Assembly (NCBI GenBank): GCA_902763655.1
Contig: CACWSW010000002.1
Span: forward strand, 10,519 to 74,518
Direction of reading: 5' to 3'
DNA length: 64,000 bases
Source of the DNA: an uncultured bacterium
GTDB lineage: Bacteria > Verrucomicrobiota > Kiritimatiellia > RFP12 > UBA1067
Shown here: positions 2,204-56,302 of the stretch, piece after piece
How positions within the stretch are numbered: position 1 is the stretch's first letter
Layout of the letters: each line of letters begins with the position of its first letter
Translations under genes and position numbers: made by a program
The notes under the pieces: model-generated
The model's database searches: none
Seen by the model: the letters and a program-made list of their open reading frames with translations, nothing else
Told to the model about the DNA's origin: nothing

Positions 2204-2255
2204 AAGGCAAGCTCCTTTTGGCAAGTTGGGCGTATCTTACCACCGCCCTCTCCCG

Positions 2256-2271
2256 CTTGTCAATTGACAAG
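2256..2271. promoter_or_regulatory. Perfect 16-bp palindrome CTTGTCAATTGACAAG (candidate operator / back-to-back -35 hexamers)
   Basis: The two halves are exact reverse complements, and TTGACA reads outward on both strands. On the minus strand a TAAGAT -10-like hexamer (complement of 2234-2239) follows after 18 nt. Next come the AAGGAG RBS and ATG 2203 of the FAD oxidoreductase gene. Confidence 0.4.
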
Positions 2272-2278
2272 TCGGCGG

Positions 2279-2643
2279 AAGTCGGCGGGCCGCCCGATAG
2301 GGGTGCCGCTGGAAGTTGGCGGACCGCCCGATAGGAATTTCATTTTCCAGTGGGCGGGCCGGGACCACCGGGACCACCGAGACCACCGGGAAATGGCAAG
2401 CCAGGCTTGCGCTCTTTGCAATTGGCCCGTAGCCTATTCCTGGCGCGAAGCACCTCCCAGGCGCAATCCCGGCGGTCCCGGTGGTCTCGGCGGTCCCGGT
2501 AGCAGGCACTTGCCCCGCGAAGCGGCCTAGCGCCTACCCGGCCATCGGCCTGTGCCTTGTCACGCGAAGCGGCCTAGCGCCTACCCGGCCATCGGCCCGC
2601 TGCCGCAAAATCCCTTCACCTTTCACCTTTCACCATTCACCCT
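2279..2643. repeat. Mosaic of short direct and inverted repeat families in a divergent intergenic region
   Basis: Direct repeat AAGT(C/T)GGCGG(G/A)CCGCCCGATAGG at 2279-2301 and 2313-2335. GGACCACCG-unit array at 2359-2390, with its inverted partner CCCGGCGGTCCCGGTGGTCTCGGCGGTCCCGG at 2468-2499. 35-nt direct repeat CGCGAAGCGGCCTAGCGCCTACCCGGCCATCGGCC at 2516-2550 and 2563-2597. CACCTTTCA-unit array at 2613-2643. Confidence 0.85.
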
Positions 2644-2663
2644 CCATGTGCTATACTTGGCGC

Positions 2664-3581
2664 ATGACAACGGAATGGATAGACCTTCAGATAAACGGCT
2701 ACGGCGGAATCGACTTCAATTCCGCCGGCCTCACGGCGGACATGGTGAAGTCGGTCACGCGGCGGCTGGCGGCGGACGGCACCGCCGCCTACCTGCCAAC
2801 GTTCGTCACCGGCGACCCGGACGTCGCCTGCGCGAACCTGCGCGCGATATCGGAGGCGCGCCGCACGGACGCCGAGTGCCGCGAGCGAATACTGGGCGTC
2901 CACCTGGAAGGCCCCTTCATCTCGCCCGAGCTAGGCGCGGTCGGCTCGCATCCCATCGAATGGGTGCATGCGCCCGACCTCGCGCTCTTCGACCGCTACC
3001 AGGAGGCGGCGGACGGCGCGGTGCGGCTCGTGACGGTGGCGGCGGAGATCGATGGCATGCCTGCCTTCGTGAAGGAGCTCGTCTCGCGCGGGATCACGGT
3101 CTCGCTCGGGCACCAGATGGCGGCGACGCCTGCGGAGATCGAGCCGTGCATCGCCGCGGGGGCCACGGCGTTCACGCACCTCGGAAACGGCATCCCCAAC
3201 ATGATCCCTCGCCACGGCAACATCGTGATGACGGCGCTTGCCGAGGACCGCGCCACCGTCATGTTCATCCCGGACGGGCACCATCTCCCGGACACGATGC
3301 TGAAGGTTTATTGCCGGGCGGTTCCACTCTCGCGCCTCGTGGCGGTATCCGACGCCCAGTACCCCGCCGGGATGCCGCCGGGCGAATACGAGGTCTGCGG
3401 CGCGCACGCGCGCCTGGAACCTAACGGCCTCCTGTGGAACCCTGCGCGCAACTGCCTAGTGGGCGCCACCACGCCCATGGCGGCGATGATGCGCCTGCTG
3501 CGAGAGCGGATCGGCCTCTCCGACGCCGAGCTCGAGGCCATCGGACGGGACAACCCCCTGCGGCTGATACGCGCCGGTTGA
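2664..3581 (+). CDS. nagA: N-acetylglucosamine-6-phosphate deacetylase-like amidohydrolase (short form, lacks the N-terminal beta-sandwich)
   Basis: ATG 2664 lies inside track ORF 2481..3581; the upstream part of that ORF is repeat sequence. Motifs line up with my recollection of E. coli NagA: DLQINGYGGIDFN (DVQLNGCGGVQFN), AYLPTFVTGD (NYLPTLITTS), GVHLEGPFISPE (GLHLEGPWLN), VSLGHQMA (VSAGHSNA), FTHLGNGIP (ATHLYNAMP). Confidence 0.65.
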   Translation: MTTEWIDLQINGYGGIDFNSAGLTADMVKSVTRRLAADGTAAYLPTFVTGDPDVACANLRAISEARRTDAECRERILGVHLEGPFISPELGAVGSHPIEWVHAPDLALFDRYQEAADGAVRLVTVAAEIDGMPAFVKELVSRGITVSLGHQMAATPAEIEPCIAAGATAFTHLGNGIPNMIPRHGNIVMTALAEDRATVMFIPDGHHLPDTMLKVYCRAVPLSRLVAVSDAQYPAGMPPGEYEVCGAHARLEPNGLLWNPARNCLVGATTPMAAMMRLLRERIGLSDAELEAIGRDNPLRLIRAG

Positions 3582-9755: not shown

Positions 9756-9772
9756 TTTTTTGATCTGACGAA

Positions 9773-13084: not shown

Positions 13085-13101
13085 TGGTTTAGGATTGCTG
13101 C

Positions 13102-13130
13102 TTGACGGGGGCAACCGTGTGATGTATAAT
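13102..13130 (+). promoter_or_regulatory. Sigma70-type promoter of the toxin-antitoxin pair (-35 TTGACG, 17 nt, -10 TATAAT)
   Basis: TTGACG at 13102-13107 and TATAAT at 13125-13130. AAAGGTGA RBS. ATG at 13164. Confidence 0.6.
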
Positions 13131-13163
13131 TTGAATCACTTTGAACTAGAAAGGTGATTCATC

Positions 13164-13415
13164 ATGACGACCTTTACAATCCATACCGACGAGAAGATGG
13201 CGGATGCCATCCGCCAGGGTGCGGCCGAGGCTGGCAAGAGCATCAACAAGTTCATCCAGGATGCCCTTGGCGGGGCGCTCGGTCTTTTCAAGCGCAAAGA
13301 ACGCCCGTTGCCGGACTTCTTCGACATAGGTACGCCATTGTCGAAGGAAGCCGCTGACGAATTACGGTCGGTACAGAAAGAATTTGACGTGATTGATGAG
13401 GAGATGTGGAAATGA
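13164..13415 (+). CDS. Antitoxin (small RHH/VapB-like DNA-binding protein)
   Basis: 83 aa with an acidic C-terminus. Its stop overlaps the toxin start (ATGA at 13412-13415). It sits immediately upstream of a PIN-domain gene. Confidence 0.7.
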   Translation: MTTFTIHTDEKMADAIRQGAAEAGKSINKFIQDALGGALGLFKRKERPLPDFFDIGTPLSKEAADELRSVQKEFDVIDEEMWK

Positions 13416-13816: not shown

Positions 13817-13832
13817 TTCTCGCGTGACAAAT

Positions 13833-16723: not shown

Positions 16724-16791
16724 TTATGGAGAGCCGCCATCTTGGCGGCGCACGATGAGAAATTATGGAGAGCCGCCATCTTGGCGGCTCA
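16724..16791. repeat. 39-nt-period direct repeat carrying the hairpin AGCCGCCATCTTGGCGGC
   Basis: TTATGGAGAGCCGCCATCTTGGCGGC occurs at 16724-16749 and 16763-16788. The core is a 7-bp stem (GCCGCCA / TGGCGGC) with a TCT loop. The identical 18-mer recurs inside dnaX at 37048-37065. Confidence 0.85.
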
Positions 16792-18597: not shown

Positions 18598-21500
18598 ATG
18601 AAAGGTCATCTTATTGGAATCGTCTGTGGACTGATCGCCGCAACAGCGTTTTCGGCCACGCCGGACGCCGCCGCCGTGCGACGGGCGAAGGAGCAGCTGG
18701 CGCTATTCAAGCCCGATGCCGCGCGCCGCGCGATGGCCGACCTGAAGTCCAACCCGAAGTACAACTGGGCGAAGCACAACGCCGCCGTGGAGGCCTTGAT
18801 CGCGAAACGCGAATTCGTGCAGACCGCCCTCGCCGGCAAGGACGTCGCGAAGCAGGCGGAGGCCGTCGCGCTCGTAGAGGCGTACCGCGCCGCGATGCTC
18901 GCGAACCCGGTCCTCGACTTCGACAAGATCCTCTGCGTCCACCGAAAGATCGGCAACCCGCGCGGCGCGTTCGGCGGGCGTGGCAGCGGCATGACCGGCC
19001 TCAACGCCGAGAACCACATGGTCGCGCCGCGCACCGGTTTCCCGAACGAGATCGTCGTCCTCTCCAACCTGCGCGGCACGCCCACGTACACGGAGATATA
19101 CAAGCCCGCCGACGGCACGTCCGTGGTGCGCGACCTCGACCTCGACTTCGATGCCTCCCGCATCCTCTTCACGCAGTACAAGGGCACGAACAACCTCTTC
19201 GGCGTGTACGAGATTTTGGTGAAAGATGAAAGTCGAAAGGTGAAAGGTGAGGAGGGCGCGGCAGACGCCAACCCACACCTTTCACCTTTCACCCTTCACC
19301 CTTCACCGCCGACGTTGGTCTCGCCGGAAGACGGCCACTACGACATCCAGTGGTGGGACGGCTGCTACCTGCCCAACAAGGACCAGGTGGTGATGCTCGG
19401 CACGGCCGCCTTCCAGTTCCTGCCGTGCGAGGACGGCAACATGCCGATGGCCGTCCTCTACCGCATCGACCGCAAGACCGGCGAGGTGCGCCAGCTCACC
19501 TACGAGCAGGACAGCGACTACACGCCGAACATCACGCACGACGGGCGCATTCTCTACACGCGCTGGGAATACTCCGACCAGCCCCACTACTGGAGCCGCG
19601 TGCTCATGACGATGAACCCCGACGGCATCGGCCAGCTCTCCGTGTGGGGCTCGAACTCCTTCGTGCCCACGTTCTTCTACTGCGCCCGTTCCGTCCCGGG
19701 CGACCCGCACCTCCTCACCATGATCGGCGGCGGCCACCACGACCGCGCCGAGGTCGGCCGCTTCTTCCAGGTCGACCCCACCCTCGCGCGCGCCTATCCC
19801 TTCAAGTACGACCCGCCAGACCGCGAGTGGGGTCCGCCCAAGCACACGCTCCGCATCCCCACGAAGGTGTTCCCGAAGGAGAAGACCGGCCTCGTGCACG
19901 AGTTCCCCGGCTTCGGCAAGGACGTGGAGGGCGACATGGCCGACCCCTACACGATGAACCAGTTCGCGCGCGGCAAGTACTACTTCTCCCACCCGTGGCC
20001 GCTCGACGCCAAGTACAACCTCGCCACCGTCAAGGCCGCGCCCGACGCGCTCATGGGCCTCTACCTCGTGGACGTGTTCGACAACGTCACGCGCATCGCC
20101 GAGGCCGACGACGGCCTGCTCGTGGAGGCGATCCCGTTCGTGCCGCGCAAGCGCCCGCCGATCATCCCCGACCGCTCGGTGAAGGGCGCCACAACATGCT
20201 CCGTGCACGTTGCCGACATCTACAACGGCCCCGGCCTCGCTGGCATCCCGCGTGGGACGGTCAAGAAGCTCCGCCTCTTCTCCTACCACTACAACTACCA
20301 CAACGTGGGCGGACACTCCTCCACCGGCTGGATCGGCTACAGGAAGTCGCCCTACAACGAGCGAGTGGAGTCCGGCTGGGACATCAAGCGCATCCTCGGC
20401 ACCGTGGACATCGAGGCCGACGGCTCCTGCTGCTTCGAGATGCCCGCGAACACGCCGATATCACTCCAGCCGCTCGACGAGAAGGGACAGGCCGTCCAGC
20501 TGATGCGCTCGTGGGTTGTGGGCATGCCCGGCGAGCGCGTCTCGTGCACCGGCTGCCACGAGGACAACCGCACTTCCATCCACACCAAGCGCACGATCGC
20601 CGACGAGAAGTACTTCAAGGGCCAGATGCAGAAGATCAAGCCGACCGACACCGACGGCCTCCGTCCGTGGGGCTTCGCCGCCGAGATGTGGCCCGTCGTG
20701 CGCAAGAACTGCTTCTCCTGCCACGGCGACCCTGCCAAGGCCCCGCTCGCCAAGGCCGACCAGGGCGGCGCGAAGGAAGTGAAGGTGGACATCTTCACGA
20801 AGTACGAGCTCTCCGGCAAGCGCCTCGTGATGGACACGCCCGAGAACGCCTACCGGATGCTGCACCCGTACATCCGCCGCCCCGGTCCAGAGAGCGAGGA
20901 GACGCTTCTCCCGCAGATGGACTACCACGCCTCGACAAGCCCGCTCGTGCAGATGCTCCGCAAGGGTCACAAGGGAATAAAGCTCGCCGACGCCGAGTGG
21001 ATGAAGATCTACGAGTGGATCGACCTCAACGCGCCCTTCATCGGCAAGTGGAATCCGCCGGAGATCAAGGGCGACAAGTGGGTGAACGCATGCGTGCCCA
21101 GCCAGGTGGAGCGCCGCCTCGAGCTGCAGAAGCGCTACGCCAACGTCCCCGACAACCCGGAGGCGGAGTACGACAGGTATTGGGCGATCGTGAGCAACAG
21201 ACTGGAGAAGTTAAGTGGCCCTTCGGGCCTAAGTGCGCCTTCGGCGCTAAGTGCTGCTTCGCAGCTAAATGAACTTAGTCGCGAAGCGACACATAGGGGC
21301 GCAGCCCCACTTAAGGCCGAAGGCCCACTTAATCACTTAACCCTCCAGGGCTGGCCGATGAACGTGCTGCAATCCGCCGACGCGCAACTCGGCCGCATCG
21401 ACGAGATCACGCCCGTCAACACGAAGACGCTGATCCTCGGCGCGGGCCAGTCGCTCACCTTCCGCCGCATCCCCGCCGGCGCGTTCGTGATGGGCAGCTC

Positions 21501-28335: not shown

Positions 28336-29625
28336 CTATTTTGCCCGGCGCTCGCCGGTGTGCCAGGTTATCAGGTGCCAGAAGAGGGAATGGCGCGTGC
28401 GACCGTCCTTGCGGTCCCAGCACTCCCAGAACGTCCAGAACGGCGACCAGTTGCGGTCAAAGCCTTCCGAGTGGCGGATTGGGTTCAACTCCAGGACTCG
28501 CTGGCGCGAGCGGCCCTTCACCGTCGTCGAGCTCCAGAACGGCCAGACGCGCGTGTAGGACGCGACCTCCGTGCGCGTTCCGTCCTTAGCCTTCGAGAAT
28601 CGCCGCTCGCTTGTCCAGAACGGGAACACCGTGAAACGCGTCTCCAGCGTCCTGTCGGACTCCAGCTCCGAATCCTCCACAAGGTACCACCCGTAGCGGC
28701 GCGTACGCTCCTCCACCTTCTCCTTGCGTCCCTTGTCGGCGTATGGATAGCCGTCGATCGCCTCGTAGAACGGCCAGACGGAAATGCGGTCGCGCACTGT
28801 GGAATGCAGGACATCCACCAGCGGCCACGGCAGCCGCCAGCGAGTGGCCTTGTCGGTCCGCGCGTAGGAGAAGAACGGCGGCAGCACGAGCGTCTGCGAT
28901 TCCCGTGCGCGGCGGACCTGACCGTAGAACGGCAAGAACATCCATGACGAGCCTGCACCGGAAGTGTCGCGGTCCTCCAGGTAGCTTGCCCACGTGAAAA
29001 GCGGCCACAGCGCGTAGCCGTGCTCGGACTCGCGCTGCGTTGCGGTCCCGTAGAACGGCCACACTCCCACGCCCGCGCGCGGTTCGTCGCGCCAGGTGAC
29101 GAACGGCCACAGGATCGCGCGGCTCCTCACGTCCTTCACGGAGTACGACTGCCATATCGGCCACAGGATGAAGTCCCAGTCATCCATGAAGAAGAAGTGC
29201 GGGTGATGTCCGTAGATCGGGAAGAATCCCCAATAGCCGTCATCCTTCCTGTCGCAGCCGCTGAACCAGAGCGGAAACACGTTGAAGCTCCACGTGGGAT
29301 CGTCATCGCGAGAGTCGCCATATGCAATGGCAGCGCGCCACCAGTCGGCCTTGTTGTGGTAGTGATAGGTTCCAAGCGGCCACAGAACATCGCACGCGAA
29401 GGTGTCGGAGGCTGGCGCGTCGACCTGGGAATAGAACGGACGGATCGCCCAGAACGACGACTGGCCTGGGGCGGCGCGCCGATACTCGAACAACGGCCCG
29501 AAGTTCCAGTGCGATCTCGTGCTCCCTCCGATACGCGCCTTCTCCGCCTCTACATCGGCGGCAAGGGACTGCAAGGACAAAAGGGCAAAGGATAAAAGAC
29601 AAACGGCTCTAGCGACGGACTTCAT
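28336..29625 (-). CDS. Secreted Trp/Pro/Phe-rich repeat protein of unknown function
   Basis: Signal peptide MKSVARAVCLLSFALLSLQSLAA. At least 10 irregular repeats centre on WP[FL][FYV] (LWPLGTY, FPLWF, LWPIW, LWPFVTW, VWPFYG, LWPLFTW, WPLVD, VWPFYE, FPFWT, VWPFWS). I do not recognise the family. Confidence 0.6.
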   Translation of the reverse strand: MKSVARAVCLLSFALLSLQSLAADVEAEKARIGGSTRSHWNFGPLFEYRRAAPGQSSFWAIRPFYSQVDAPASDTFACDVLWPLGTYHYHNKADWWRAAIAYGDSRDDDPTWSFNVFPLWFSGCDRKDDGYWGFFPIYGHHPHFFFMDDWDFILWPIWQSYSVKDVRSRAILWPFVTWRDEPRAGVGVWPFYGTATQRESEHGYALWPLFTWASYLEDRDTSGAGSSWMFLPFYGQVRRARESQTLVLPPFFSYARTDKATRWRLPWPLVDVLHSTVRDRISVWPFYEAIDGYPYADKGRKEKVEERTRRYGWYLVEDSELESDRTLETRFTVFPFWTSERRFSKAKDGTRTEVASYTRVWPFWSSTTVKGRSRQRVLELNPIRHSEGFDRNWSPFWTFWECWDRKDGRTRHSLFWHLITWHTGERRAK

Positions 29626-29660
29626 TCACCATTCACCTTTCACCATTCACCTTTCACTTC
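29621..29660. repeat. CACCTTTCA / CACCATTCA unit array (same family as 2613-2643)
   Basis: The 20-mer TTCACCTTTCACCATTCACC at 29632-29651 is identical to 2622-2641. The array lies between two minus-strand genes. Confidence 0.85.
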
Positions 29661-36744: not shown

Positions 36745-38226
36745 CTACTTTATCGCCGTGACCTTGGCTCCCGGCAAGGCCGCAAGGAGCGCGTTGAGCT
36801 TGGGATCGTCCATCATCTTTCGCTGCTCTTCCGGCGTCAGCTGCGGACGGGCAGCCGGCTTGGAAGTTGACTGGACACTTGGCTTGGCGGTTGACTGGGC
36901 ACCCGCGGCAGAAGGGCTGGCACCTCCGGCGACTTTAAGGTCTTTAGGGCCTTTAACGTCGTTAGGGTCTTTAGGGTCATTAGAGACTTTAACGACCTTA
37001 TCATCCTTATCGACATCGCCGCCGCTAGACCCTGCGCTGACTGGGACAGCCGCCATCTTGGCGGCTCCACCACCAGCCGCGAGCGCGCGGACGGCCCGCA
37101 TCAGCTCCTCGATGCTCGCCACCGTGGCGATGCGAGACGCTCGCAGAAGCGTCATCTCGATGAGAGTGCGCACGCTGAGAGCGTAGCGCAGCTTGTCCTC
37201 CATCGCGGCCAGCTGGTCGGCTATGCGGAAGATGCGAGAGGCGTCGCAGAGCTTCGCCTGCTCCGAGAGCGTCTTCACCTGGTCGGGCGTGGCCTCCAGG
37301 ACGGCGGTCTGCCCGCCCAGCGACTGGTACACGATCAGGTTGCGGAAGTGCCGCAGCAGCTCGCCCGCGAGACGGCGCATGTTCTTGCCCGCCGAGTCGA
37401 ACGCCTCAACGGACTGCAGGATCGCCGCCGCGTCGCCTTTCAGGATCGCTCCGGCGAGGTCTTCGAGCGCCTTGCGCGAAACGAGGCCGAACACGCTCAG
37501 GGCATCCTCTTCCGTGATGGTGGTGCCCTTGAACGCGATCAGCTGGTCGAGTGAAGAGAGCGCGTCGCGCATGCCTCCCTCCGCGCCGCGCGCGATGGCG
37601 AGGAGCGCATCCTGGTCGGCCGTGATGCCTTCCTTGCCGCAGATGTACTGCAGACGGGCTGCTATCTGGTGCGTCTGGATGCGGCGCAGGTCGAACCGCT
37701 GGCAGCGCGAGACGATCGTCGCGAGAACCTTGTCGCCCTCCGTGGTGGCGAAGACGAACTTCACGTACGGCGGCGGCTCCTCGAGCGTCTTGAGGAGCGC
37801 GTTCCACGCCGAGGGCGTGAGCATGTGGCATTCGTCGATGATGAAGATCTTGTACTTCGAGGTCGTCGGCTTGAACTGGACGGCCTCGATGATCGGACGC
37901 ACATCCTCCACCTTGTTGTGGCTGGCGGCGTCGAGCTCCGTGACGTCAAGCGACCTGCCTGCGGCGATCTGCTTGCAGTTGTCGCACTCCCCGCACGGCT
38001 CCACGCCCTTCGGGCTTGCGCAGTTGAGCGCCTTCGCGAAGATGCGCGAGAGCGTGGTCTTGCCGATGCCGCGCGGGCCGACGAAGAGGTAGGCGTTGGC
38101 GATGCGCCCCGATTCCAGGGCGTTCCTTAGCGTGCGCGTGACGTGCTCCTGGCCGACGACGTCGTCGAACGTCATCGGCCTGTACTTCAGCGGCAACGCC
38201 ACATGGACTTGTTCTGTCTCCTGCAT
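36745..38226 (-). CDS. dnaX: DNA polymerase III subunit gamma/tau
   Basis: LKYRPMTFDDVVGQEHV, FVGPRGIGKTTLSRIFAKALNC, zinc module CGECDNC, IFIIDECHML, FVFATTE, SRCQRF. Confidence 0.95.
   Translation of the reverse strand: MQETEQVHVALPLKYRPMTFDDVVGQEHVTRTLRNALESGRIANAYLFVGPRGIGKTTLSRIFAKALNCASPKGVEPCGECDNCKQIAAGRSLDVTELDAASHNKVEDVRPIIEAVQFKPTTSKYKIFIIDECHMLTPSAWNALLKTLEEPPPYVKFVFATTEGDKVLATIVSRCQRFDLRRIQTHQIAARLQYICGKEGITADQDALLAIARGAEGGMRDALSSLDQLIAFKGTTITEEDALSVFGLVSRKALEDLAGAILKGDAAAILQSVEAFDSAGKNMRRLAGELLRHFRNLIVYQSLGGQTAVLEATPDQVKTLSEQAKLCDASRIFRIADQLAAMEDKLRYALSVRTLIEMTLLRASRIATVASIEELMRAVRALAAGGGAAKMAAVPVSAGSSGGDVDKDDKVVKVSNDPKDPNDVKGPKDLKVAGGASPSAAGAQSTAKPSVQSTSKPAARPQLTPEEQRKMMDDPKLNALLAALPGAKVTAIK
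36933..37066. repeat. Repeat units embedded in the dnaX C-terminal linker (TTAAGGTC/TTAGGGTC array plus the AGCCGCCATCTTGGCGGC hairpin)
   Basis: The array TTTAAGGTCTTTAGGGCCTTTAACGTCGTTAGGGTCTTTAGGGTCATTAGAGACTTTAACGACC at 36933-37005 belongs to the same unit family as 54873-54968. The 18-mer at 37048-37065 is identical to 16732-16749. Translation: GGAAKMAAVP...DKDDKVVKVSNDPKDPNDVKGPKDLKV. Confidence 0.8.
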
Positions 38227-38261: not shown

Positions 38262-39527
38262 TCATCCAAGCGAAATGCTCATGCCGAAGCCGGGAGGTAT
38301 GTCGTCAGGACGATGTGCCACGCAGATCGCCGTGCAATCCGGGCGTGACGAAAGGTAGTGCGCAACGCGCGAGCGCAGGCGGCGCGCCGCCGCCACGTCC
38401 AGGTTCAGGCAAGGTTCGTCCAGAAGGAGCAGGTCCGGCTTCTTGCGCAGCGCCATTTCCAGAAGCTCGTCCGCGCCTAGGCCAAGATAGGACTGCTGCT
38501 CCGGCGACACCATGCCGATGCGCCGCCGCACCTTGGCAAGCTCCGTGCCGGGCGCGCGACGCACGCCGAACACGGTCACGTCGTTGGCGTAGGCCAAGGG
38601 ACTGTCCCCCGTGATGAGCGCAAGAAGCGTTGTCTTGCCGCTCCCGTTCGGACCCTGCAGCACCCAATGCTCGCCGCGCCGAACCGTCCACGAGAACCCG
38701 TCGAAAAGTTTCCTCCGACCAAAGCAAATCCGAATTCCCCTCAGCTCAACCACCGGAGTCGCCGGATGGCCCTGTGTCGCCGGATGGCCCTGTAGTATCT
38801 CCCGGTCCCGGCGGTCCCGGTGGTCTCGGCGGTCCCGGCACTCCCATCGCTCCCGGCACTCCCATCGCTCTCGGCCAAGATAGCGCACTTCAGTGACACA
38901 GGAAGGGATCTCGTCCTCGTGCCGCACGGAAATGAGGAGCGACGTCCCTTGCGCGGCCAGCGTATCCAGAAGCCGCTTGAGTTCGTCGCGCCGTTCAGGG
39001 TCCAGTCCCGCGCACGGGTCGTCCAGCACCAGCAGCGCGGGAGCTGAAAGGAGCGCGTGCGCGAGCAACACACGGCGCGTCTCGCCGTTCGAGAGCGCGA
39101 GGAAGGGACGGTCCATCAGATCGCGGAGACGAAGAAGCGGCATGATCCTGCGGCGCGCAGCGGCGTAGGATCGACGTTCCGCGAGGCGCGACCGCCCGAC
39201 CTCAAACGGGTTGACGTCGAACACGCGGTTGAAGGAAAGAACATCGGCCACGGTATCGCCAGGGCCGGCGTCATCCACAAGCGAATAGTAGCGCGCCTGC
39301 AGGAATCCCCCCTTCCGCGCGGCCGCGCGCTGCTGCGCGAAGGAGACGAGCCGCACGCGCCCTTCCATTCCTTCGTCCATCTCCACGGACATCCCGCGCG
39401 GCACCGGCTCCTCGCCGGCAACGATCCTGCACAGGCGCGACTTCGCCGCGCCGTCGTCGCCGAGAAGCGCCCAGCAGCGTCCGCGCTCGAACCGCCAGGT
39501 TCCACCTATAGAAATTGCCTTTGTCAT
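38262..39527 (-). CDS. ModF-like tandem ABC ATPase (two nucleotide-binding domains, no TM domain)
   Basis: The real start is ATG 39527 (MTKAISIGG); the track start 39563 is TTG. NBD1: degenerate Walker A GDDGAAKS, LSNGETRRVLLAHALLSAPALLVLDDPCAGLD. NBD2: QGPNGSGKTTLLALITGD, LLLLDEP. Long stretches parallel my recollection of E. coli ModF (LSWQVNPGEHWQIVGPNGAGKSTLLSLITGDHPQGYSNDLTLFGRRRG). Confidence 0.75.
   Translation of the reverse strand: MTKAISIGGTWRFERGRCWALLGDDGAAKSRLCRIVAGEEPVPRGMSVEMDEGMEGRVRLVSFAQQRAAARKGGFLQARYYSLVDDAGPGDTVADVLSFNRVFDVNPFEVGRSRLAERRSYAAARRRIMPLLRLRDLMDRPFLALSNGETRRVLLAHALLSAPALLVLDDPCAGLDPERRDELKRLLDTLAAQGTSLLISVRHEDEIPSCVTEVRYLGRERWECRERWECRDRRDHRDRRDREILQGHPATQGHPATPVVELRGIRICFGRRKLFDGFSWTVRRGEHWVLQGPNGSGKTTLLALITGDSPLAYANDVTVFGVRRAPGTELAKVRRRIGMVSPEQQSYLGLGADELLEMALRKKPDLLLLDEPCLNLDVAAARRLRSRVAHYLSSRPDCTAICVAHRPDDIPPGFGMSISLG
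38758..38874. repeat. 117-nt block of three tandem repeat types inside the ABC ATPase inter-domain linker
   Basis: GTCGCCGGATGGCCCTGT x2 at 38758-38793. The CGGTCCCGG-unit array includes the 32-mer at 38807-38838, identical to 2468-2499. CACTCCCATCGCTC(C/T)CGG x2 at 38839-38874. Translation: RERWECRERWECRDRRDHRDRRDREILQGHPATQGHPAT. Confidence 0.85.
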
Positions 39528-39584: not shown

Positions 39585-41513
39585 ATGAAACGCTTTCTTC
39601 TAGGAGCAACCATACTTGCGGCGCTGGTCGGTCTACTGTATGCGCCGACAGGTTCGTTCGGATTTCTGCATCTCGACGACCACGACTACACTTTCCTCTG
39701 CCCGTTCGTGCACGGCGGGCTGTCATGGGGCAACATAAAGGAAGCTTTCACGAACCTGAGCCATGGCGGCGTATGGATGCCGCTCACCTACATTTCCTAC
39801 ATGTGCGACATCTCTCTGTTCGGGCCTGGAGCAGGGCCGCATCACCTCGTGAACGTGGCGCTTCACATGGTCAACGCCATGCTGCTGCTGACGCTCGCCT
39901 GGCGGCTCGCGGGCGGCAGAAGACGCTTCTGGATCGTGCTTGCCGTGGCATTCTGGGCGTTCCATCCGCAGCGCGTGGAGGCCGTGGCGTGGATCGCCAG
40001 CCGCAAAGAGTTGTTGTGGGCCGCATTCACGCTCGCGGGCCTGCTGTTTTGGGGATCGGCAGATCGCAGATCGGCCATCAGATCCATCGCGGCGTATCTG
40101 TGCTGCGCGCTCGCATGCATGAGCAAGCCTACGGCCATGTGCTTTCCGGCGCTCGCGCTTTGCGTGGATCTGGCGATGCGCAGTGGCATTTGCCCAAGCG
40201 ACAGCGAGGCCAGGCACACAGAAGATGCCAAGTACACAGAAGGGGGCAAGCACATAGCATTGATGCGCGAACTGCGTTCGCGTATCTTCCCCTACCTGCC
40301 GCTCCTGCTCATGGCCATCGCCACTGGTGCGCTCGCCATGTATTCGCAGACACACCCAGCCGGCCACGAGGTGCGTGCGATCTTCAGCGCATCCCTGCCG
40401 TGGCGACTTCTCAATGCCATTGTAGCGATCGGCCTTTCGCTGTTCCAGATGATCGTGCCCGTAGGAATCCACATCGACTACCGCGCCGTCCCCGGACAGT
40501 GGCCTATCCACGGGCTCCTAGGCTGCCTGACATTCGTTTCGTGCCTGGTGCTTGTAGTTGGAGCTTTTAGCTTTAAGCTTGGAGCTTGGAGTGTTGCTTT
40601 CGCGCATATCTCTTGCCCGCAAGACCCGCACAAAGCTCAAAGCTCTAAGCTCAAAGCTCTAAGCTCTAAGCACCAAGCACCTGCAATCTCCATCCTCTGG
40701 TTCCTGGCAGCCCTCCTGCCAACCCTCGGCATCTTCGGCAGCTTCGGCGAACATGCGCGCGCCGACCGATTCCTCTACGTGCCGATGATGGCCGTGGCGG
40801 TGGCGGTGGCGATGGCAGGGGGGGACCAGGACCGCCGGGATCACCGAGACCACCGGGGAAAGCCAGCTAAGAAGTGGCAGAGCTTGGCAATGAGGTCCAT
40901 GGCCGGCCTGTATGTGGCGACATTGGCAGTGATTGCCTGGCCCGTAATCGATTCCTACAGAAACGACGAGTCCGTCTTCAGGCGCGCACTACTCTTCGAT
41001 CCCGATAACGGCCGCGCGCTCGCACACGTGGGCCAGGCGGAATGCGCTCAGCGCAACGGCATCGACCGCGGCATCGAACATCTCCGCCGAAGCCAAGCAG
41101 TCCGTCCGCGCGACGACACCTCCGCCCAGCTGGCCTACGCGCTTGCAATGCGCGGCCATTCCGGCGACTTCGGTGAGATCCGTCGCCTATGCAGCAAGTT
41201 CGCCTGCGACCATACGCTCGACAGGAAGGGACAGGCCCTCGAGGCGCTTGGCATCACGGCCATGCGCCAGCGACGGTGGAACGAGGCCATCGGCTGCCTC
41301 TACGACTCCATCCGCGCGCCGAATCGATTCTACTCGAACGAGGACGCCATGCTGAAGCTCGCGGCATGCCTCTGCAACGCAGGCCGACAGGCAGAAGCCA
41401 CGAAATGGCTCGAGCAACTGACGCGCTCAAAGCGAAACGACATTAGAGGGAAGGCCATCCAGTCGCTGGAGACGCTCAAGCGCAATCCACGGACCGTGCT
41501 CTTCCTCGATTAG
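39585..41513 (+). CDS. TMTC/PMT-like polytopic membrane protein with C-terminal TPR repeats
   Basis: ATG 39585 (MKRFLLG); the track start 39579 is GTG. The N-terminal loop FLHLDDHDYTF...GGVWMPLTYISYMCD...HHLVNVALHMVNAMLL fits the DD...RPL...H.N..H pattern of TMTC-type O-mannosyltransferase-like proteins. About 10 TM segments. TPR-like C-terminus. Confidence 0.6.
   Translation: MKRFLLGATILAALVGLLYAPTGSFGFLHLDDHDYTFLCPFVHGGLSWGNIKEAFTNLSHGGVWMPLTYISYMCDISLFGPGAGPHHLVNVALHMVNAMLLLTLAWRLAGGRRRFWIVLAVAFWAFHPQRVEAVAWIASRKELLWAAFTLAGLLFWGSADRRSAIRSIAAYLCCALACMSKPTAMCFPALALCVDLAMRSGICPSDSEARHTEDAKYTEGGKHIALMRELRSRIFPYLPLLLMAIATGALAMYSQTHPAGHEVRAIFSASLPWRLLNAIVAIGLSLFQMIVPVGIHIDYRAVPGQWPIHGLLGCLTFVSCLVLVVGAFSFKLGAWSVAFAHISCPQDPHKAQSSKLKALSSKHQAPAISILWFLAALLPTLGIFGSFGEHARADRFLYVPMMAVAVAVAMAGGDQDRRDHRDHRGKPAKKWQSLAMRSMAGLYVATLAVIAWPVIDSYRNDESVFRRALLFDPDNGRALAHVGQAECAQRNGIDRGIEHLRRSQAVRPRDDTSAQLAYALAMRGHSGDFGEIRRLCSKFACDHTLDRKGQALEALGITAMRQRRWNEAIGCLYDSIRAPNRFYSNEDAMLKLAACLCNAGRQAEATKWLEQLTRSKRNDIRGKAIQSLETLKRNPRTVLFLD
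40546..40680. repeat. Intragenic inverted repeat of AGCTT(T/G)-type units
   Basis: The left arm GTGCCTGGTGCTTGTAGTTGGAGCTTTTAGCTTTAAGCTTGGAGCTTGGAG pairs with the right arm CAAAGCTCAAAGCTCTAAGCTCAAAGCTCTAAGCTCTAAGCACCAAGCAC. Same unit family as the intergenic array at 44136-44320. Translation: ...GAFSFKLGAWSVAFAHISCPQDPHKAQSSKLKALSSKHQAP. Confidence 0.8.
40821..40858. repeat. Intragenic GGACC(A/G)CCG-unit array (inverted copy of the 2468-2499 / 38807-38838 element)
   Basis: GGGGACCAGGACCGCCGGGATCACCGAGACCACCGGGG. Translation: GGDQDRRDHRDHRG. Confidence 0.75.
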
Positions 41514-41529: not shown

Positions 41530-41607
41530 GGTTAACCACGAAATACACGAAACACACGAAAGAGTACCGAGACGCCTTTCGTGTATTTCGTGTGTTTCGT
41601 GGTTCAA
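41530..41607. repeat. Near-perfect ~30-bp-arm hairpin of CACGAAA(T/C)A units between convergent genes
   Basis: GGTTAACCACGAAATACACGAAACACACGAAAG, then a 13-nt loop, then CTTTCGTGTATTTCGTGTGTTTCGTGGTTCAA. No trailing U-tract on either strand. Confidence 0.8.
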
Positions 41608-43449: not shown

Positions 43450-44132
43450 TCTACCTTTTCCATTCTGCCGATAAGCCATGCAACGCAACGCTGCACTTCT
43501 GCCTTCAGCTCTTCTACAGTCGAATCGTTTTGGATTGTCCAGTCGGCGCGAGCGGCCTTTTCGGCCACGGGCATCTGCGCCGCAAGACGCGCCTCCGCCT
43601 GCGCCCGCGTGTAACCGCGTGTACGCATCATGCGGTCGATCTGCCGATCTTCCGCGGAGGAGACGCAGAGTATTGTATCATAATCTGACTCGAAATGCGA
43701 CTCGAAAAGGAGAGGAATTATCGCGAGCCTAAAGTTGGTAGTTGGTGGTTGGCGGTTGGCTGGGTATGGTTGTCGGCCCCCGAAAGTCGAATGCCGGTCA
43801 TCACATTGCAATTCGCCATTGGCGAAATCCCGCAGCCGCCGGCGCACCAGAGGATGGAGGATCGCCTCAAGGTCGCGTCTCACGGCGGTCGCAACAAGTT
43901 GCGACCCTCCCGCGAAGACAATCTCCGCCAACCTGGAACGGTCAATGCCGCCATCGGGAGCGAGAACCGACTGGCCGAAGCGAGAGACTATGGCAGGGAC
44001 GGCCGCGCCGCCTGGCGCTTCCAGCTCGTGAACGACATCGTCCGCGTCTAATGTCTGAACGCCAAGCTCACGAAAGAACTTGGCGACCAGACTCTTCCCG
44101 CAGGCGATGCCACCTGTCAGTGCTATGCGCAT
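43446..44132 (-). CDS. coaE: Dephospho-CoA kinase
   Basis: MRIALTGGIACGKS P-loop, DADDVVHEL, ILHPLV, IPLLFE. ATG at 44132; the track start 44135 is GTG. Confidence 0.9.
   Translation of the reverse strand: MRIALTGGIACGKSLVAKFFRELGVQTLDADDVVHELEAPGGAAVPAIVSRFGQSVLAPDGGIDRSRLAEIVFAGGSQLVATAVRRDLEAILHPLVRRRLRDFANGELQCDDRHSTFGGRQPYPANRQPPTTNFRLAIIPLLFESHFESDYDTILCVSSAEDRQIDRMMRTRGYTRAQAEARLAAQMPVAEKAARADWTIQNDSTVEELKAEVQRCVAWLIGRMEKVE
43731..43825. repeat. Low-complexity GGTTGG-unit tract plus TTCGCCATTGGCGAA hairpin embedded in coaE
   Basis: AAGTTGGTAGTTGGTGGTTGGCGGTTGGCTGGGTATGGTTG ... AATTCGCCATTGGCGAAAT. It encodes the segment FANGELQCDDRHSTFGGRQPYPANRQPPTTNF. This makes the HPL-to-PLL spacing about 22 aa longer than in E. 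coli CoaE as I recall it. Confidence 0.6.
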
Positions 44133-44135
44133 CAC

Positions 44136-44320
44136 TTTTAGCTTTTAGCTTCTAGCTTTTAGCTTTTGCGTCTGCTTCTGCTTATGGCTTCCAGCTTTTA
44201 ACTTTTGCATCTGCTTCTGGCTTTTAGTTTTTAGCTTCTAGCTTCTAGCTTTGAACGGTACAGAACGACCACTCGAAAAGCTAACAGCTAAAAGCTAGAA
44301 GCTAAAAGCTAAACAACAAA
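44136..44320. repeat. 185-bp intergenic inverted repeat made of AGCTTTT/AGCTTCT units
   Basis: The left arrays CTTTTAGCTTTTAGCTTCTAGCTTTTAGCTTTT and GCTTTTAGTTTTTAGCTTCTAGCTTCTAGCTTT face AAAAGCTAACAGCTAAAAGCTAGAAGCTAAAAGCTAAA. The block fills the whole spacer between the secretin stop and the coaE start. Confidence 0.85.
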
Positions 44321-50150: not shown

Positions 50151-51883
50151 TTCCTGGCCGCCTTTCCTTTGCGGTCGGCATCCTGCCGGACAATCGTCGG
50201 CGCCGGCGCGAACACGACCTTGATCTTGTATTCCATCAGGCAGCCCTTCAGCTCCTTCCAACCCTCAGGCTTGACCTCGGAGAACAGCGCCTTCGCATTC
50301 TTCAGCGAGTCGACCACGATCACGTCCGCTGTCAGCTTCTGACCGTTGTTGCGCTTCGCCCACTCGCTCTCCGCCTTCGCGACGACGTCCTTCCAGCCCC
50401 TGATCGTGATCTTGGCGCCTTCCTTGGGCTGCGCATCGTCCCTGCCGGAGCCAGACTCACCGGACAGCGGTTCCCACGCCGTGATCCACAGACCGTCGAT
50501 CTGCTTCAGGCTCTCGCGGACGGCCCGCATGCGCAGGATCGTCGCCGAACGCTGCCAGAGGAGCTTCTGGAACTTGTCGCACTCCTCCACTTCAGCGCTT
50601 ACGGCGGCCTGCGCATTCTTGAGCGCCGCCTCCTTCGACTTGAGCTGGCCATTCTTCGCCTGCACGGCCTCGAACTGCGCGCTCGCCACTTCCTTCAGGT
50701 GGTTCTCGGCGTACCATCCGGCACCTAGCGCCGCAAGGAACGCCAGCGCGCCTGCGGCGATGAAAGGTATGCGGCGGATCGTGCGCGCCTGCTCCACGAG
50801 CTCGGGCGGCATCAGGTTGAGCTGAATCGACGCGAGGTCGGTCTCGCGCAACGCGAGGCCCACGGACTCGGCCAGCGTGAAGGCGTCGCTCTCCAGCTCG
50901 TCCGCGTTGACGTGCGGCCCGACGGCCACGCCCGCGAACGGATTGAGGAAGTCGACCGACACCTGCAGCGACTCGGTGAAGAACTCCGCGAGCTGCGGCA
51001 GCCGCACCGTGCCGCCCGTAAGGAACAGGCGGCTGGGCGCGGATCCGCCCTGCTGCGAGCGGTAGAAGTTGATGGAGCGGGAAACCTCTACGTGCAGGCG
51101 CGTGAGCACGTTGCGCACGATCTTCGACACCTGGTCGGTAACCTCGTCCTCGTCTTCCGTGACGCCGCCCATCGACACGTAGCCGCGCTCGATCTTCAGC
51201 TGCTCGGCTTCCTCGAGGGAACACCCGAACGCCTGCGCGATGTCCTTCGTGATCGCGTTCCCCGCCACGGGAATGGACCTGTTGTAGATCTTCTCGTCCT
51301 CGAGGATGATCAGGTTCGTCGTTTTCGCGCCGATGTCCAGCACCACCGTGCAGCCGGGAAGCCTGGGGTTCGAGAAGCGCAGCGCGTTGCACACCGCGAT
51401 CGGCGAGACGTCGACGATGGTCGGCTTCAGCCCAGCGGATTGCGCGGTCTCCGTCACGGCCCGCACGCCTTCCAGCTTGGCCGCGACGATCAGCGCCGCC
51501 TTGTCCCCTTCCGGCGTCGTGCCCAGGAACTGGCAGTCGCTCACGATCTCGTCGATCGGGAACGGCACGTTCTGCTCGATCTCGTAGCCGACCAGCTGGT
51601 CAAGCTTAGCCGCATCGCCAACAGCCGGGAACTTCGCGAATCTCGGGAAGACCGTCTGTCCGCTCAGGGACAGCACCAGAGGTCCGGGCTTGATGCCCTT
51701 GGAACGCAGTATCTCGTGCAGGACGGGCGGCAGGGCCGCCGACAGGGCTGCAGGATCGTTGACGTCGATCCCCGAAAGGTCACCATTGCCGTACGCCGTG
51801 AGCGTGAGCTTTCGCTTCCCGCTCAGGGAGTACTCGGCAAGCGTGGCTTTCGACGCGCCGATGTTAAGGGTTAGGAATCGCAT
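50147..51883 (-). CDS. pilM: PilM-PilN fusion (actin-like ATPase fold plus TM/coiled-coil; Amuc_1101-like)
   Basis: LNIGASKATLAEY, DEIVSDCQFLG, VVLDIGAKTTNLIILE, VAGNAITKDIAQ and LFLTGGTVRLPQL form the PilM core. Then LNLMPPELVEQARTIRRIPFIAAGALAFLAALGAGWY, a PilN-type anchor. Confidence 0.85.
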   Translation of the reverse strand: MRFLTLNIGASKATLAEYSLSGKRKLTLTAYGNGDLSGIDVNDPAALSAALPPVLHEILRSKGIKPGPLVLSLSGQTVFPRFAKFPAVGDAAKLDQLVGYEIEQNVPFPIDEIVSDCQFLGTTPEGDKAALIVAAKLEGVRAVTETAQSAGLKPTIVDVSPIAVCNALRFSNPRLPGCTVVLDIGAKTTNLIILEDEKIYNRSIPVAGNAITKDIAQAFGCSLEEAEQLKIERGYVSMGGVTEDEDEVTDQVSKIVRNVLTRLHVEVSRSINFYRSQQGGSAPSRLFLTGGTVRLPQLAEFFTESLQVSVDFLNPFAGVAVGPHVNADELESDAFTLAESVGLALRETDLASIQLNLMPPELVEQARTIRRIPFIAAGALAFLAALGAGWYAENHLKEVASAQFEAVQAKNGQLKSKEAALKNAQAAVSAEVEECDKFQKLLWQRSATILRMRAVRESLKQIDGLWITAWEPLSGESGSGRDDAQPKEGAKITIRGWKDVVAKAESEWAKRNNGQKLTADVIVVDSLKNAKALFSEVKPEGWKELKGCLMEYKIKVVFAPAPTIVRQDADRKGKAARK

Positions 51884-51885
51884 TG

Positions 51886-51996
51886 GATTGAAGATTGAGG
51901 ATTGAGGATTGAAGATTCAGGATTGAGGATTGAGGATTGAAGATTCAGGATTGAGGATTGGGAAAAATCTTCAATCTGAAATCTTCAATCTAAAAT
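51886..51996. repeat. Intergenic inverted repeat of GATTGAGG/GATTGAAG units
   Basis: The (GATTGAAGATTGAGGATTGAGGATTGAAGATTCAG)x2-like array faces ATCTTCAATCTGAAATCTTCAATCTAAAATC. Related units recur at 56251-56302. Confidence 0.85.
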
Positions 51997-52740
51997 CTAC
52001 TGGATTGTCTCGTAGTCTGCGTTGTTGACGAGATAGAAAGGAGACTTGGAGCGGTCGACGAGCCCCTGGCGGATCTCGATCATCGCCTCGCCGCTCTTGT
52101 CCTTGGCGTTGATGATCGAATCGTTGTTCCACCACTCCATCTTCTCCTTCGACTCCTCGTTGAACTGGCCGGCCTGCACGTACGAGAACCCGTTAACGAC
52201 CGTCGCGCCGTCAAGCAGCTTGCCTTCTGACGTCACGAGCTCGCAGGAAATCACCACCGGTTCGCCGTAGCGCTCGATGAAGGAAGGAGGCAGACAGACG
52301 CACGAACGGTGATCGCCCTCAGGGATGTTCACGTAGCGAGAGACGAGCGTGTAGTAGACATATGGCGGCAGACGGGCAGCCGTCTTCGAGCGGTCAACCT
52401 GCTTGGCCTTCTTCGTGTCGCAGAGGACGAACCAGTTGACCGTGAGGTCCTCAGTCCACTTCTGCGCGGTGCGGTACGTCATCTCGTACACGCCCCACTG
52501 GCGGCGGCTCTTCGTGATAGGCTGGCTGCCGCCCTGCGCCTGAAGACCGGGCGCCACCAGCAGCGACTGCGGCCCGATGTTCGGCATCTGGCTGATCTTG
52601 ACCTTCGCGTCCATCTTCTCCTGGGCGGCCTCACGAGCCGTCTTGCCGCTCCCACTCCGAGAGGAGGAACGGCGCTGGGCCGAAACGGACAACGCGCACG
52701 CGAGCGCGAGGGAACAACAGAGCAACGTTTTGATCTTCAT
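51997..52740 (-). CDS. Secreted protein of unknown function, first gene of the pilus-like cluster (Amuc_1102-like position)
   Basis: The real start is ATG 52740, with a GGAGAA RBS. Signal peptide MKIKTLLCCSLALACALSVSA. No motif I recognise. Confidence 0.55.
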   Translation of the reverse strand: MKIKTLLCCSLALACALSVSAQRRSSSRSGSGKTAREAAQEKMDAKVKISQMPNIGPQSLLVAPGLQAQGGSQPITKSRRQWGVYEMTYRTAQKWTEDLTVNWFVLCDTKKAKQVDRSKTAARLPPYVYYTLVSRYVNIPEGDHRSCVCLPPSFIERYGEPVVISCELVTSEGKLLDGATVVNGFSYVQAGQFNEESKEKMEWWNNDSIINAKDKSGEAMIEIRQGLVDRSKSPFYLVNNADYETIQ

Positions 52741-54810: not shown

Positions 54811-55050
54811 TGGACAATTCCTTGTGCTTCAAATGGACTGGTTAAGAAGTTGAAAAGCTGGACGGGGAGGAATTTAAGGTCTTTAGCGTCGTTAAGGTCC
54901 TTAGGGTCGTTAAGGTCGTCGTAATCATTAAGGTCGTTGTAAGCGGTAAGGTCGTTGTAAACGTTAAGCTCATGCACGAAGACTCATCGACTTTTCAACC
55001 TTTCAACTTTTTAACCATTTAACCTTTTAACCCTTTAACCTTTCGACCCG
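54811..55050. repeat. Composite repeat region (TTAAGGTCGT-unit array and TTAACC(T/A)TT-unit array) spanning the pta-ackA spacer and the last codons of ackA
   Basis: AAGGTCTTTAGCGTCGTTAAGGTCCTTAGGGTCGTTAAGGTCGTCGTAATCATTAAGGTCGTTGTAAGCGGTAAGGTCGTTGTAAACGTTAAG, then CTTTTCAACCTTTCAACTTTTTAACCATTTAACCTTTTAACCCTTTAACCTTTCGACC. GTTAAGAAGTTGAAAAG at 54841-54857 is roughly complementary to 54995-55018. Confidence 0.8.
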
Positions 55051-56250: not shown

Positions 56251-56302
56251 CAGATTGTAGATTGAGGATTGATGATTGGGGAATGGGGAACGGGGATTGA
56301 CT
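56251..56302. repeat. GATTG(A/T)-unit array upstream of ackA
   Basis: GCAGATTGTAGATTGAGGATTGATGATTGGGGAATGGGGAACGGGGATTGAC. Same unit family as 51886-51996. Confidence 0.75.

Follow-up and report, generated by a model that had tools for sequence, protein, structure and literature searches.

Tandem-array palindromes: dispersed, hairpin-prone repeats between and inside genes of a Kiritimatiellia lineage

A 64-kb stretch of DNA from an uncultured bacterium of the Kiritimatiellia (contig CACWSW010000002.1; here called the window) contains numerous arrays of short tandem units, several of which are followed by a loop and an array in inverted orientation. We propose the name tandem-array palindromes for these elements (an array of 7-18-nt units, a loop and an inverted array). 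A sequence-only reading of the window had drawn attention to the spacer upstream of a nagA-like gene (the focal spacer), in which it described four repeat types whose units recur at distant positions. We favour the explanation, held with slightly more belief than doubt, that the elements are clade-specific, non-autonomous and hairpin-prone repeats acting at the DNA level, which change by slippage, by template switching between their arms and by copying between loci, and which selection filters to permissive sites.

Arrays and inverted partners in the window

Tandem Repeats Finder detected 41 arrays with a period of 6-20 in the window. A score of at least 40 was reached by 22 of them, and 12 arms had an inverted partner within 200 nt. 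By comparison, 20 order-3 Markov simulations yielded about 4.6 weak arrays, at most 1 strong array and no pairs. No fewer than 10 unrelated unit families are represented. The prevailing periods are 7 and 9, and higher-order units of 14 and 18 nt are also present, which replaces the earlier description of units of 8-10 nt, or one helical turn. Enrichment is a property of the arrays but not of a single unit, as the 9-mer GGACCACCG occurred 22 times with 26 occurrences expected. The succession of array, loop and inverted array, which the sequence-only reading had considered the common architecture, is indeed frequent (the elements marked as composites in Table 1, with a degenerate one in the ackA-pta spacer), but several arrays are single arms or hetero-pairs and not hairpins.

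The long-range matches proposed from the sequence alone were recovered. The 32-mer at 2468-2499 is repeated exactly at 38807-38838, with 0 matches expected by chance, and has an inverted relative at 40829-40855. The 20-mer at 2622-2641 is identical to 29632-29651 and related to an array at 19274-19307. The other unit families were also found again, including the hairpin AGCCGCCATCTTGGCGGC at 16732, 16771 and 37048. We ruled out an assembly artefact, because identical sequences are present in independent assemblies from different samples.

The focal spacer and its dispersed family

The focal spacer comprises 460 bp (2204-2663) between two divergent genes. Repeat mapping confirmed the presence of four repeat types, but three of these are modules of one dispersed element and not independent repeats. 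Judged by its sequence, the spacer is mosaic, combining a member of a modular family with a separate heptamer array. Each 25-nt motif of the 5' module contains the palindrome GGCGGNCCGCC, the two arms have 33 nt each and are 88% complementary, and a mini-hairpin, CGCGAAGCG, is located inside the tail module. The heptamer array at 2615-2641 is not part of the element, because a copy of the element on the metagenome contig L126 lacks it. One heptamer unit (2629-2634) coincides with the -35 box of a promoter-like sequence, TTCACC-17-TATACT, whose TATACT ends at 2657, 7 nt before the ATG at 2664. Hence, the array now supplies the -35 box of the predicted nagA-like promoter, and the nagA-like mRNA is probably leaderless. 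In sister species nagA has other upstream neighbours, at gaps of 8-31 nt; the focal spacer is therefore species-specific and lies at a synteny breakpoint.

The left edge of the focal spacer contains a perfect 16-nt palindrome, CTTGTCAATTGACAAG, at 2257-2272, with TTGACA on both strands, and boxes like TTGTCAAT(T/G) are present upstream of other genes (L180 ~9663, L185 ~7250). An extended -10-like box (TGnTATACT / TGGTATCAT) about 7 nt before an ATG was seen at window positions 2652-2666, in L126 (~2270-2285) and in L180 (~9688-9700). The position of these -10-like boxes close to the ATG suggests that leaderless mRNAs could be common in this lineage. Many operon-internal start codons lack a Shine-Dalgarno sequence.

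The family to which the focal element belongs has a size of about 270-330 nt, and four copies are known from four genomes and four different contexts. The modules follow each other in the order GGCGGNCCGCC motif (repeated 2-4 times), 9-mer arm, loop, inverted arm and tail. The strongest evidence for dispersal, which the sequence-only reading had proposed, came from L126, where a block of about 265 nt is 87.6% identical to window positions 2294-2558 and includes the motif, both arms, the loop and one tail unit. A 23S rRNA gene has its 5' end about 200 nt from this block, which also lies upstream of an FGE-sulfatase gene, a context unlike that in the window. The member in L189 (19125-19450) has the motif as four tandem 19-mers, different 9-mer arms and a related tail, and the member in L180 (9445-9660) lacks the 3' arm and lies upstream of an HZS/FGE gene. 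The 5' module is kept in all three relatives, and the 42-nt tail unit, present twice in the window, occurs once each in L126 and L189. When comparing the arms of the window and L189, we found differences at 11 of the 33 positions with pairing kept, including 8-9 double compensatory pairs.

An nhmmer model built on the four members found no further copies in the window and the related loci, and a spurious open reading frame (ORF) across the element, used as a query for more copies, gave no matches. Scanning metagenomes with a 9-mer array pattern resulted in 120 hits, mostly unrelated GGA-CCR-CCG coding repeats; the relevant ones were limited to L126, L172 and, marginally, L158. Viral contigs, searched with three element-specific patterns, and plasmids contained nothing related, and thus there was no sign of phage- or plasmid-borne elements. 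On L126 itself (1-1767), the 23S rRNA gene is preceded by the composite element and a protein-coding gene instead of a 16S rRNA gene, suggesting that the rRNA genes are unlinked.

Copies inside genes

At least seven sites in the window have in-frame copies inside genes. These copies, noted in the sequence-only reading, proved to be real, and they are insertions or replacements relative to the homologues, as with Rickettsia palindromic elements (RPEs). The host genes stay intact. Alignments with homologues placed the copies at hypervariable, gap-rich positions, at which relatives have short linkers or different composites, and translation of the arrays in frame predicts peptides such as RERWECRDRRDHRDRRDRE and LSGPSGLSAPSALSAASQ. 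The two linkers of the HZS_alpha/FGE-sulfatase gene illustrate this variability: homologues mostly have short linkers, and at these same sites close relatives have, as checked at the DNA level, either no composite or, taken together, at least five different ones. In L006, the closest representative (see below), 33-mer hairpin units take the place of the arrays that the window has in the C-terminal linker of dnaX.

Two sites in a membrane-protein gene, A and B, were compared between the window, L006 and L172. At site A, L006 and L172 have arms of the GTGCTT type, and L172 has the loop core inverted, in the opposite orientation to that of the window and L006. The window has outer units of the GTGCTT type and symmetric inner units of the GAGCTT type, on both arms. 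Site B, a single 9-mer arm in the window, has a full heptamer composite in L006 and L172. The loop-core family was found at three loci.

Copies between genes

Intercistronic copies often span the distance from stop codon to start codon (Table 1). In the degenerate pair at 29573-29657, the partner array (29573-29603) falls in the signal-peptide codons of the downstream gene, which encodes a 429-aa protein, and L006 has a 9-mer composite at this site. The secretin-CoaE spacer (44135-44313) shows a 39-nt copy-number change between strains and a different family, with AGTGCTT arms plus the loop core, in L006. Strains also differ by 28 nt, or four 7-nt units, in the composite upstream of pilM. Several spacers in L189 have two non-complementary arrays each. 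C/A-rich arrays abut downstream start codons without a Shine-Dalgarno sequence.

Public gene calls include a 56-aa ORF at window positions 54807-54977 (L001 9834-10004), which is the translation of the TTAAGGTCG array spacer (DLNDPKDLND...) between ackA and pta and probably a spurious gene.

Table 1. Positions of the arrays, composites and modules in the window
Feature	Position	Strand	Description
FAD-oxidoreductase gene	start codon 2203	minus	left flank of the focal spacer
Promoter-like site	2234..2263	-	TTGACA, 18 nt, TAAGAT, with TG; for the divergent FAD-oxidoreductase gene; left boundary of the repeat block
5' module of focal element	2277..2361	+	25-nt motif x2 (2277-2301, 2311-2335), third half-site 2349-2361
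Arm 1	2359..2391	+	9-mer GGGACCACC x3.7
Loop (75 nt)	2392..2466	+	nested small hairpins GCAAGC-CAG-GCTTGC and GCGCGAAGC; conserved in L126
Arm 2	2467..2499	+	inverted 9-mer array; includes the 32-mer identical to 38807-38838
Tail module	2500..2612	+	42-nt unit, period 47, copies at 2509-2550 and 2556-2597
Heptamer array	2615..2641	+	TTCACCT x3.9; separate array
nagA-like gene	ATG at 2664	plus	right flank of the focal spacer
Direct repeat	16726..16788	+	39 nt x2, each with hairpin AGCCGCCATCTTGGCGGC; intercistronic spacer; third hairpin copy at 37048 inside dnaX
Composite, in frame	19218..19307	+	GGTGAAA x4.7, 20-nt loop, CACCTTT x4.6; linker 1 of HZS_alpha/FGE-sulfatase gene (18598-22263)
Composite, in frame	21211..21332	+	18-nt units, each a TAAGTG linker and a mini-hairpin (TTCG or GAA loop); linker 2 of HZS_alpha/FGE-sulfatase gene
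Degenerate pair	29573..29657	-	GGTGAAT/GGTGAAA heptamers fill the 28-nt stop-to-start spacer 29626-29653
Arrays, in frame	36857..36992	-	24-mer x1.9 and 9-mer TAAAGACCC-type x6.6; C-terminal linker of dnaX
Arrays, in frame	38758..38875	-	18-mer x2, 9-mer x6 (including the 32-mer), 18-mer x2.4; linker joining the two halves of an ABC ATPase
Composite, in frame (site A)	40543..40681	+	GAGCTT-type heptamer arms; conserved loop core GTTGCTTTCGCGC...CTTGCCCGCAAG; membrane/TPR protein gene
Single arm, in frame (site B)	40821..40858	+	9-mer, GGACCGCCG family; membrane-protein gene
Composite, near-perfect	41534..41604		CACGAAACA x2.8, 13-nt loop, inverted array; in the spacer of the convergent membrane-protein and rho genes
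Single array, in frame	43733..43760	-	heptamers, CCAACCA-type on the coding strand; inside CoaE
Composite	44135..44313	-	TTAGCTT arrays; fills the secretin-to-CoaE spacer from stop to start
Composite	51881..52002	-	GGATTGA x10.9 and inverted array; fills the spacer upstream of pilM
Composite, degenerate	54874..55049	-	imperfect pair of TTAAGGTCG 9-mers and CTTTTAAC 8-mers; ackA-pta spacer
Single array	56253..56300	-	GATTGAG family; ends at the ackA start codon

Distribution and differences between strains and species

Exact-protein look-ups located the same locus in several ENA ruminant-gut assemblies, and a single GTDB scan assigned it to Kiritimatiellia. The closest representative, RUG11483 (L006), is collinear with the window at 88-95% nucleotide identity. 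The gene content of the window is typical of the Planctomycetes-Verrucomicrobia-Chlamydiae group, with Amuc_1100/1102 pilus genes, a secretin, HZS_alpha/FGE proteins and Rho. Applying one pipeline to all loci examined, we detected composites only in the window, in loci of the same species, in L006 and, less densely, in L180-L184 and L189 (~76-87% protein identity), with a single exception in about 600 kb of DNA from other phyla. More distant Kiritimatiellia, of which about 200 kb was covered, had none. In blastn comparisons of L006 with the window the alignment breaks precisely at the repeat sites, and the orthologous sites have different units or wholly different families.

The presence/absence polymorphism between related genomes that the sequence-only reading had suggested looking for was found at the junction of pta and the SIS gene. 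Four assemblies have a 155-bp composite (GTTAGGT arrays, loop, ACCAAAC arrays) that exactly fills the gap from the pta stop to the SIS start, and the window and L002 have an overlapping TAATG and no composite. The filled/empty pair, GCCAAGTA followed by ATG versus GCCAAGTAG...CC followed by ATG, shows no target-site duplication. It is located at the boundary of a recombination tract: the 3 kb on the upstream side have 0 differences, and the first 400 nt on the downstream side have 26. These 26 substitutions lie in the first 400 nt of the SIS gene, beside the composite (window 53367-53767 versus L001 11199-11600), and the cluster reflects either the edge of the recombination tract or element-linked mutagenesis.

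Strand asymmetry of the palindromes

Eighteen composites have an unambiguous transcription direction and were used to compare the strands. In 15 of the 18, the antisense strand has a more stable fold than the sense strand, and transition mismatches between the arms, read on the sense strand, are A·C in 43 cases and G·U in 14. Selection for an mRNA hairpin predicts the opposite, and both observations therefore disfavour a hairpin in the sense RNA. The G-rich arm is 5' of the C-rich arm in 16 of the 18 composites, a property that is the same on both strands. The focal element sits between two divergent promoter-like -35 boxes and is therefore probably not transcribed. No U-tract terminators were present at the elements, and canonical ones were not above chance in 28-48 kb. 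Rfam gave 0 hits at the gathering threshold in the window, and a tRNA scan of the window found nothing.

Relation to known repeats

The sequence-only reading had stated that no described element type matches. This was too strong, as convergent inverted heptamer arrays are known in Xanthomonas (PMC4692102) and arrays abutting start codons in Beggiatoaceae and cyanobacteria (PMC4679880). In Xanthomonas, GGGAATC heptamer arrays occur in about 70-75 cases per genome as two close arrays on opposite strands, with the potential to form stem-loops or cruciforms (Rehm et al. 2015, PMC4692102). Like the elements described here, the arrays of Xanthomonas and the short tandemly repeated repetitive (STRR) sequences of cyanobacteria are tandem heptamer arrays and mostly intergenic, and in Xanthomonas array length varies among related strains with the type preserved (PMC4692102). 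However, each Xanthomonas genome has a single G-rich unit, for which G-quadruplex formation is discussed (PMC4692102), and the window has many unrelated units of 7, 8, 9, 10 and 18 nt. Some conserved loops, some in-frame genic copies and the switches of unit family at orthologous sites further distinguish the elements in the window. In summary, they share with the class of heptamer arrays (STRR sequences or long simple-sequence repeats) the over-represented short-unit arrays and the convergent inverted pairs, but not the restriction to one or a few characteristic units per genome. The TAACTGA heptamers of Beggiatoaceae and cyanobacteria also form arrays at or next to start codons, usually without a Shine-Dalgarno sequence in between, have stops in all three frames in one orientation and, in a few copies, overlap gene ends (MacGregor 2015, PMC4679880). 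They differ in having a single unit sequence, almost no inverted pairs (one case) and no in-frame copies in the middle of genes (PMC4679880).

RPEs are palindromes of about 100-150 bp that are present in frame in unrelated housekeeping genes and in intergenic DNA, where they add peptide segments at tolerated positions, and no transposase is known for them (PMC10969869). The elements in the window resemble RPEs in all these respects, and the palindromic insertion in frame with an intact ORF was indeed observed. In contrast, RPE families (RPE-1 to RPE-10) have a conserved consensus and are not built of tandem short units (PMC10969869), and the units in our set differ between sites and species, which sets them apart from RPEs by description. 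RPEs are also old and mostly static (PMC10969869), whereas the elements described here turn over between close species and vary between strains, and they belong to a different phylum, as the window comes from Kiritimatiellia.

We agree with the sequence-only reading that the elements are unlike repetitive extragenic palindromic (REP) sequences and bacterial interspersed mosaic elements (BIMEs), as the defining features of that class, a 20-40-nt imperfect palindrome with a conserved head that is repeated genome-wide and an extragenic location, are missing. A REPIN consists of two inverted REPs that form a long hairpin, and it is mobilised by REP-associated tyrosine transposases (RAYTs) (Bertels & Rainey 2011, PMC3116915). 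Short hairpin-forming extragenic repeats, family evolution within a genome and mobilisation without target-site duplication are common to REPs, BIMEs and REPINs (PMC3116915) and resemble what we observed. The arms in the window are however arrays of non-palindromic 7-9-nt units without a conserved GTAG-type head, many copies are intragenic, and no RAYT was found in the window or the called genes of related loci, the single lead being a fragment below the threshold in a sister species. REP-like features are limited to the 18-nt units at 21211-21332, which resemble small BIME-like clusters, and to the hairpin at 16732, 16771 and 37048.

Other classes were more distant. [quoted passage not shown] Mycobacterial interspersed repetitive units (MIRUs) have a small ORF overlapping the flanking start and stop codons; only the ackA-pta spacer has such a coupling ORF, and the other spacers have stops in all frames. 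The tandem repeats of Borgs are likewise fast-evolving, independently arising arrays and give rise to low-complexity or disordered protein segments inside genes, but these are perfect direct repeats that lack inverted partners, and their carrier is an archaeal extrachromosomal element (PMC9879509). CRISPRs were dropped, as the units are contiguous without spacers and there are no cas genes, and so were integron attC sites, as neither an integrase nor an R-box is present and the copies are located within core operons and genes. None of the compared systems combines many unit families, arms of tandem units, conserved loops that can flip, in-frame genic copies and family turnover at orthologous sites.

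Origin and maintenance of the palindromes

The closest precedent for the changes within an element is a process and not an element. Template switching at quasipalindromes, between the arms of an inverted repeat, yields arm homogenisation and inversion of the spacer (PMC8604942, PMC7202029), and both patterns are present here. It is known for point and multinucleotide mutations at short inverted repeats and not for array palindromes of 100-190 bp throughout a genome (PMC7202029, PMC8604942). The co-variation of the arms and the flipped loop would match these known outcomes of template switching or recombination between arms at the DNA level.

We suggest the following scheme for our favoured explanation. 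Slipped-strand mispairing makes the arrays longer or shorter, as the copy-number differences between strains show. Template switching or recombination between arms could then keep the arms complementary and flip the loops; the pattern is seen in our data, and the enzymology is taken from quasipalindrome biology. Copies and unit types may spread between loci by gene conversion of dispersed copies or by mobilisation of single-stranded DNA hairpins in trans. Dispersal between loci is observed, and we infer the mechanism of copying. Finally, copies would persist only where they do no harm, that is in stop-to-start gaps, in divergent or convergent spacers and, translated in frame, in disordered protein linkers. 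Most copies are probably neutral or selfish passengers, and a few may have been co-opted, for example as a -35 box or as the hairpin between convergent genes.

Several observations weigh against this scheme. L006 has a 100% identical copy of the composite that separates the convergent membrane-protein and rho genes, with flanks averaging about 88% between the species, which hints, from the sequence comparison, at a function for at least that copy. Neutral dynamics leave the G-arm-first chirality unexplained. The focal spacer is identical in two other strains, three strains in all, and so shows no visible instability on a short timescale. The filled/empty pair at the pta-SIS junction is confounded by the tract edge and shows no insertion mechanism, target motif or target-site duplication. 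No enzyme or process that copies the elements to new loci was identified. Moreover, the census is based on about 64 kb plus fragments and not on a whole genome.

This is a lineage in which structural variation, including new low-complexity segments in essential proteins, has a major and very rapid source in palindromes of short-unit arrays. Its strains and sister species in public metagenomes provide a natural system to study the co-evolution of inverted-repeat arms and the spread of hairpin repeats without a known transposase. On the practical side, the elements break alignments and assemblies of rumen metagenome-assembled genomes, create spurious small ORFs and inflate apparent protein divergence, and they could act as high-resolution strain markers.

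Alternative explanations

Functional RNA hairpins could account for the intercistronic copies, which span exactly from stop to start so that the base of the stem juxtaposes both codons. As Rho-independent-like terminators, REP-like stabilisers of 3' ends or stems that join stop and start for translational coupling, such hairpins would be consistent with the very stable stems predicted for the composites, with the conservation of the hairpin between the convergent genes and with canonical U-tract terminators being no commoner than chance in 28-48 kb. Nevertheless, we consider this explanation rather improbable in view of the strand asymmetry, the location of the focal element between divergent -35 boxes, and the missing U-tracts and Rfam family. 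In addition, many copies are single arms or non-complementary hetero-pairs, copies in coding regions would impede ribosomes, and the empty allele, TAATG, works without a hairpin. A role as protein-binding arrays or as a portable regulatory cassette, with the GGCGGNCCGCC palindromes and the symmetric 9-mer arrays of the focal family as putative operator or architectural sites, would explain why a palindromic motif recurs 2-4 times at regular intervals (34 or 19 nt). For three of the four members, the downstream gene has the same orientation and a promoter-like -35/-10, and the member lies 50-100 nt upstream of this site; glycan-related functions (nagA-like, FGE-sulfatase/HZS_alpha) are among the downstream genes. 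This role is very unlikely even so, because it covers the focal family only and not the composites inside genes or from stop to start, because no co-oriented gene lies downstream of the L189 copy, and because arms whose sequence is free as long as they pair are atypical of sequence-specific binding sites; no cognate regulator was identified. That the short-period arrays are contingency loci, switching phase by frameshift or altered promoter spacing, is hardly credible. Array copy number does vary between strains, heptamer units are not multiples of three and one array overlaps a -35 box, but the hosts are housekeeping genes (dnaX, coaE, ABC ATPase) with all copies in frame, the copy-number changes seen are intergenic, changes in the -35 array leave the -35/-10 spacing unaltered, and the focal spacer is identical in three strains.

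A trans-acting HUH transposase (Y1, RAYT- or IS200/IS605-type) that copies single-stranded hairpins without target-site duplications would make them REPIN- or MITE-like mobile elements. Families with conserved loops dispersed in unrelated contexts, the insertion polymorphism without target-site duplication and the conservation of structure with free arm sequence are consistent with such an enzyme, and a 138-aa protein of a sister species (L189 444-860) has a weak match to Y1_Tnp / REP-associated tyrosine transposase, or IS200-type TnpA. The match is however limited to the N-terminal 60 aa, at 21 bits versus a cut-off of 80 (REP_Tyr_transpos), the C-terminal region, where the catalytic tyrosine normally lies, is unmatched, and the gene is not visibly flanked by composites. 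No transposase was found in the window (64 kb) or among the genes called at related loci, and no conserved terminal or target motif was seen; the many unit sequences would have to be recognised by structure alone, and different families at identical orthologous sites fit turnover in place at least equally well. We therefore regard mobile elements of this kind as unlikely. Tentatively, we also entertain an undescribed structure-directed process, such as a hairpin-specific enzyme or a lineage-specific peculiarity or defect in replication and repair, which would make and spread 'sequence-free' palindromes of tandem units, seeded repeatedly at the same permissive junctions (stop-to-start gaps and protein linkers); it is doubtful, though we take it seriously. 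If true, this process writes new peptide segments into housekeeping proteins, and the G-arm-first chirality and the mismatch asymmetry between sense and antisense would be its footprints. Insertion templated from the local flanks was rejected, because on inspection the units were unrelated to the sequences flanking the insertion sites.

Other observations in the window

Other coding repeats are present in the window. The N-terminal region of the secretin gene (47183-47652) has coding tandem repeats of 75/150 nt, and the protein has 1163, 1188 or 1196 aa across strains. Three large paralogues (832, 1103 and 925 aa) are encoded at 7257-16723, two with Metallophos domains nearby; they contain internal coding repeats with a period of about 711 nt, and duplicated blocks about 7 kb apart have 73-85% identity. 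The Rho ORF (41614-43488) has an N-terminal extension of about 250 aa before the RNA-binding domain, and the longest reading runs into the end of coaE, which makes its true start uncertain. Inside the TPR/TMEM260-like gene, 77 nt of the window (30355-30432), not a multiple of three, are missing from L006 (~19103); candidate reasons are a frameshift or pseudogene in L006, a mistake in the assembly and a compensated indel. At 13164-13816, a gene for an 83-aa antitoxin-like protein overlaps one for a PIN-domain (VapC-like) protein. The two lie in an island of lower GC content, flanked on either side by promoter-like TATAAT boxes.

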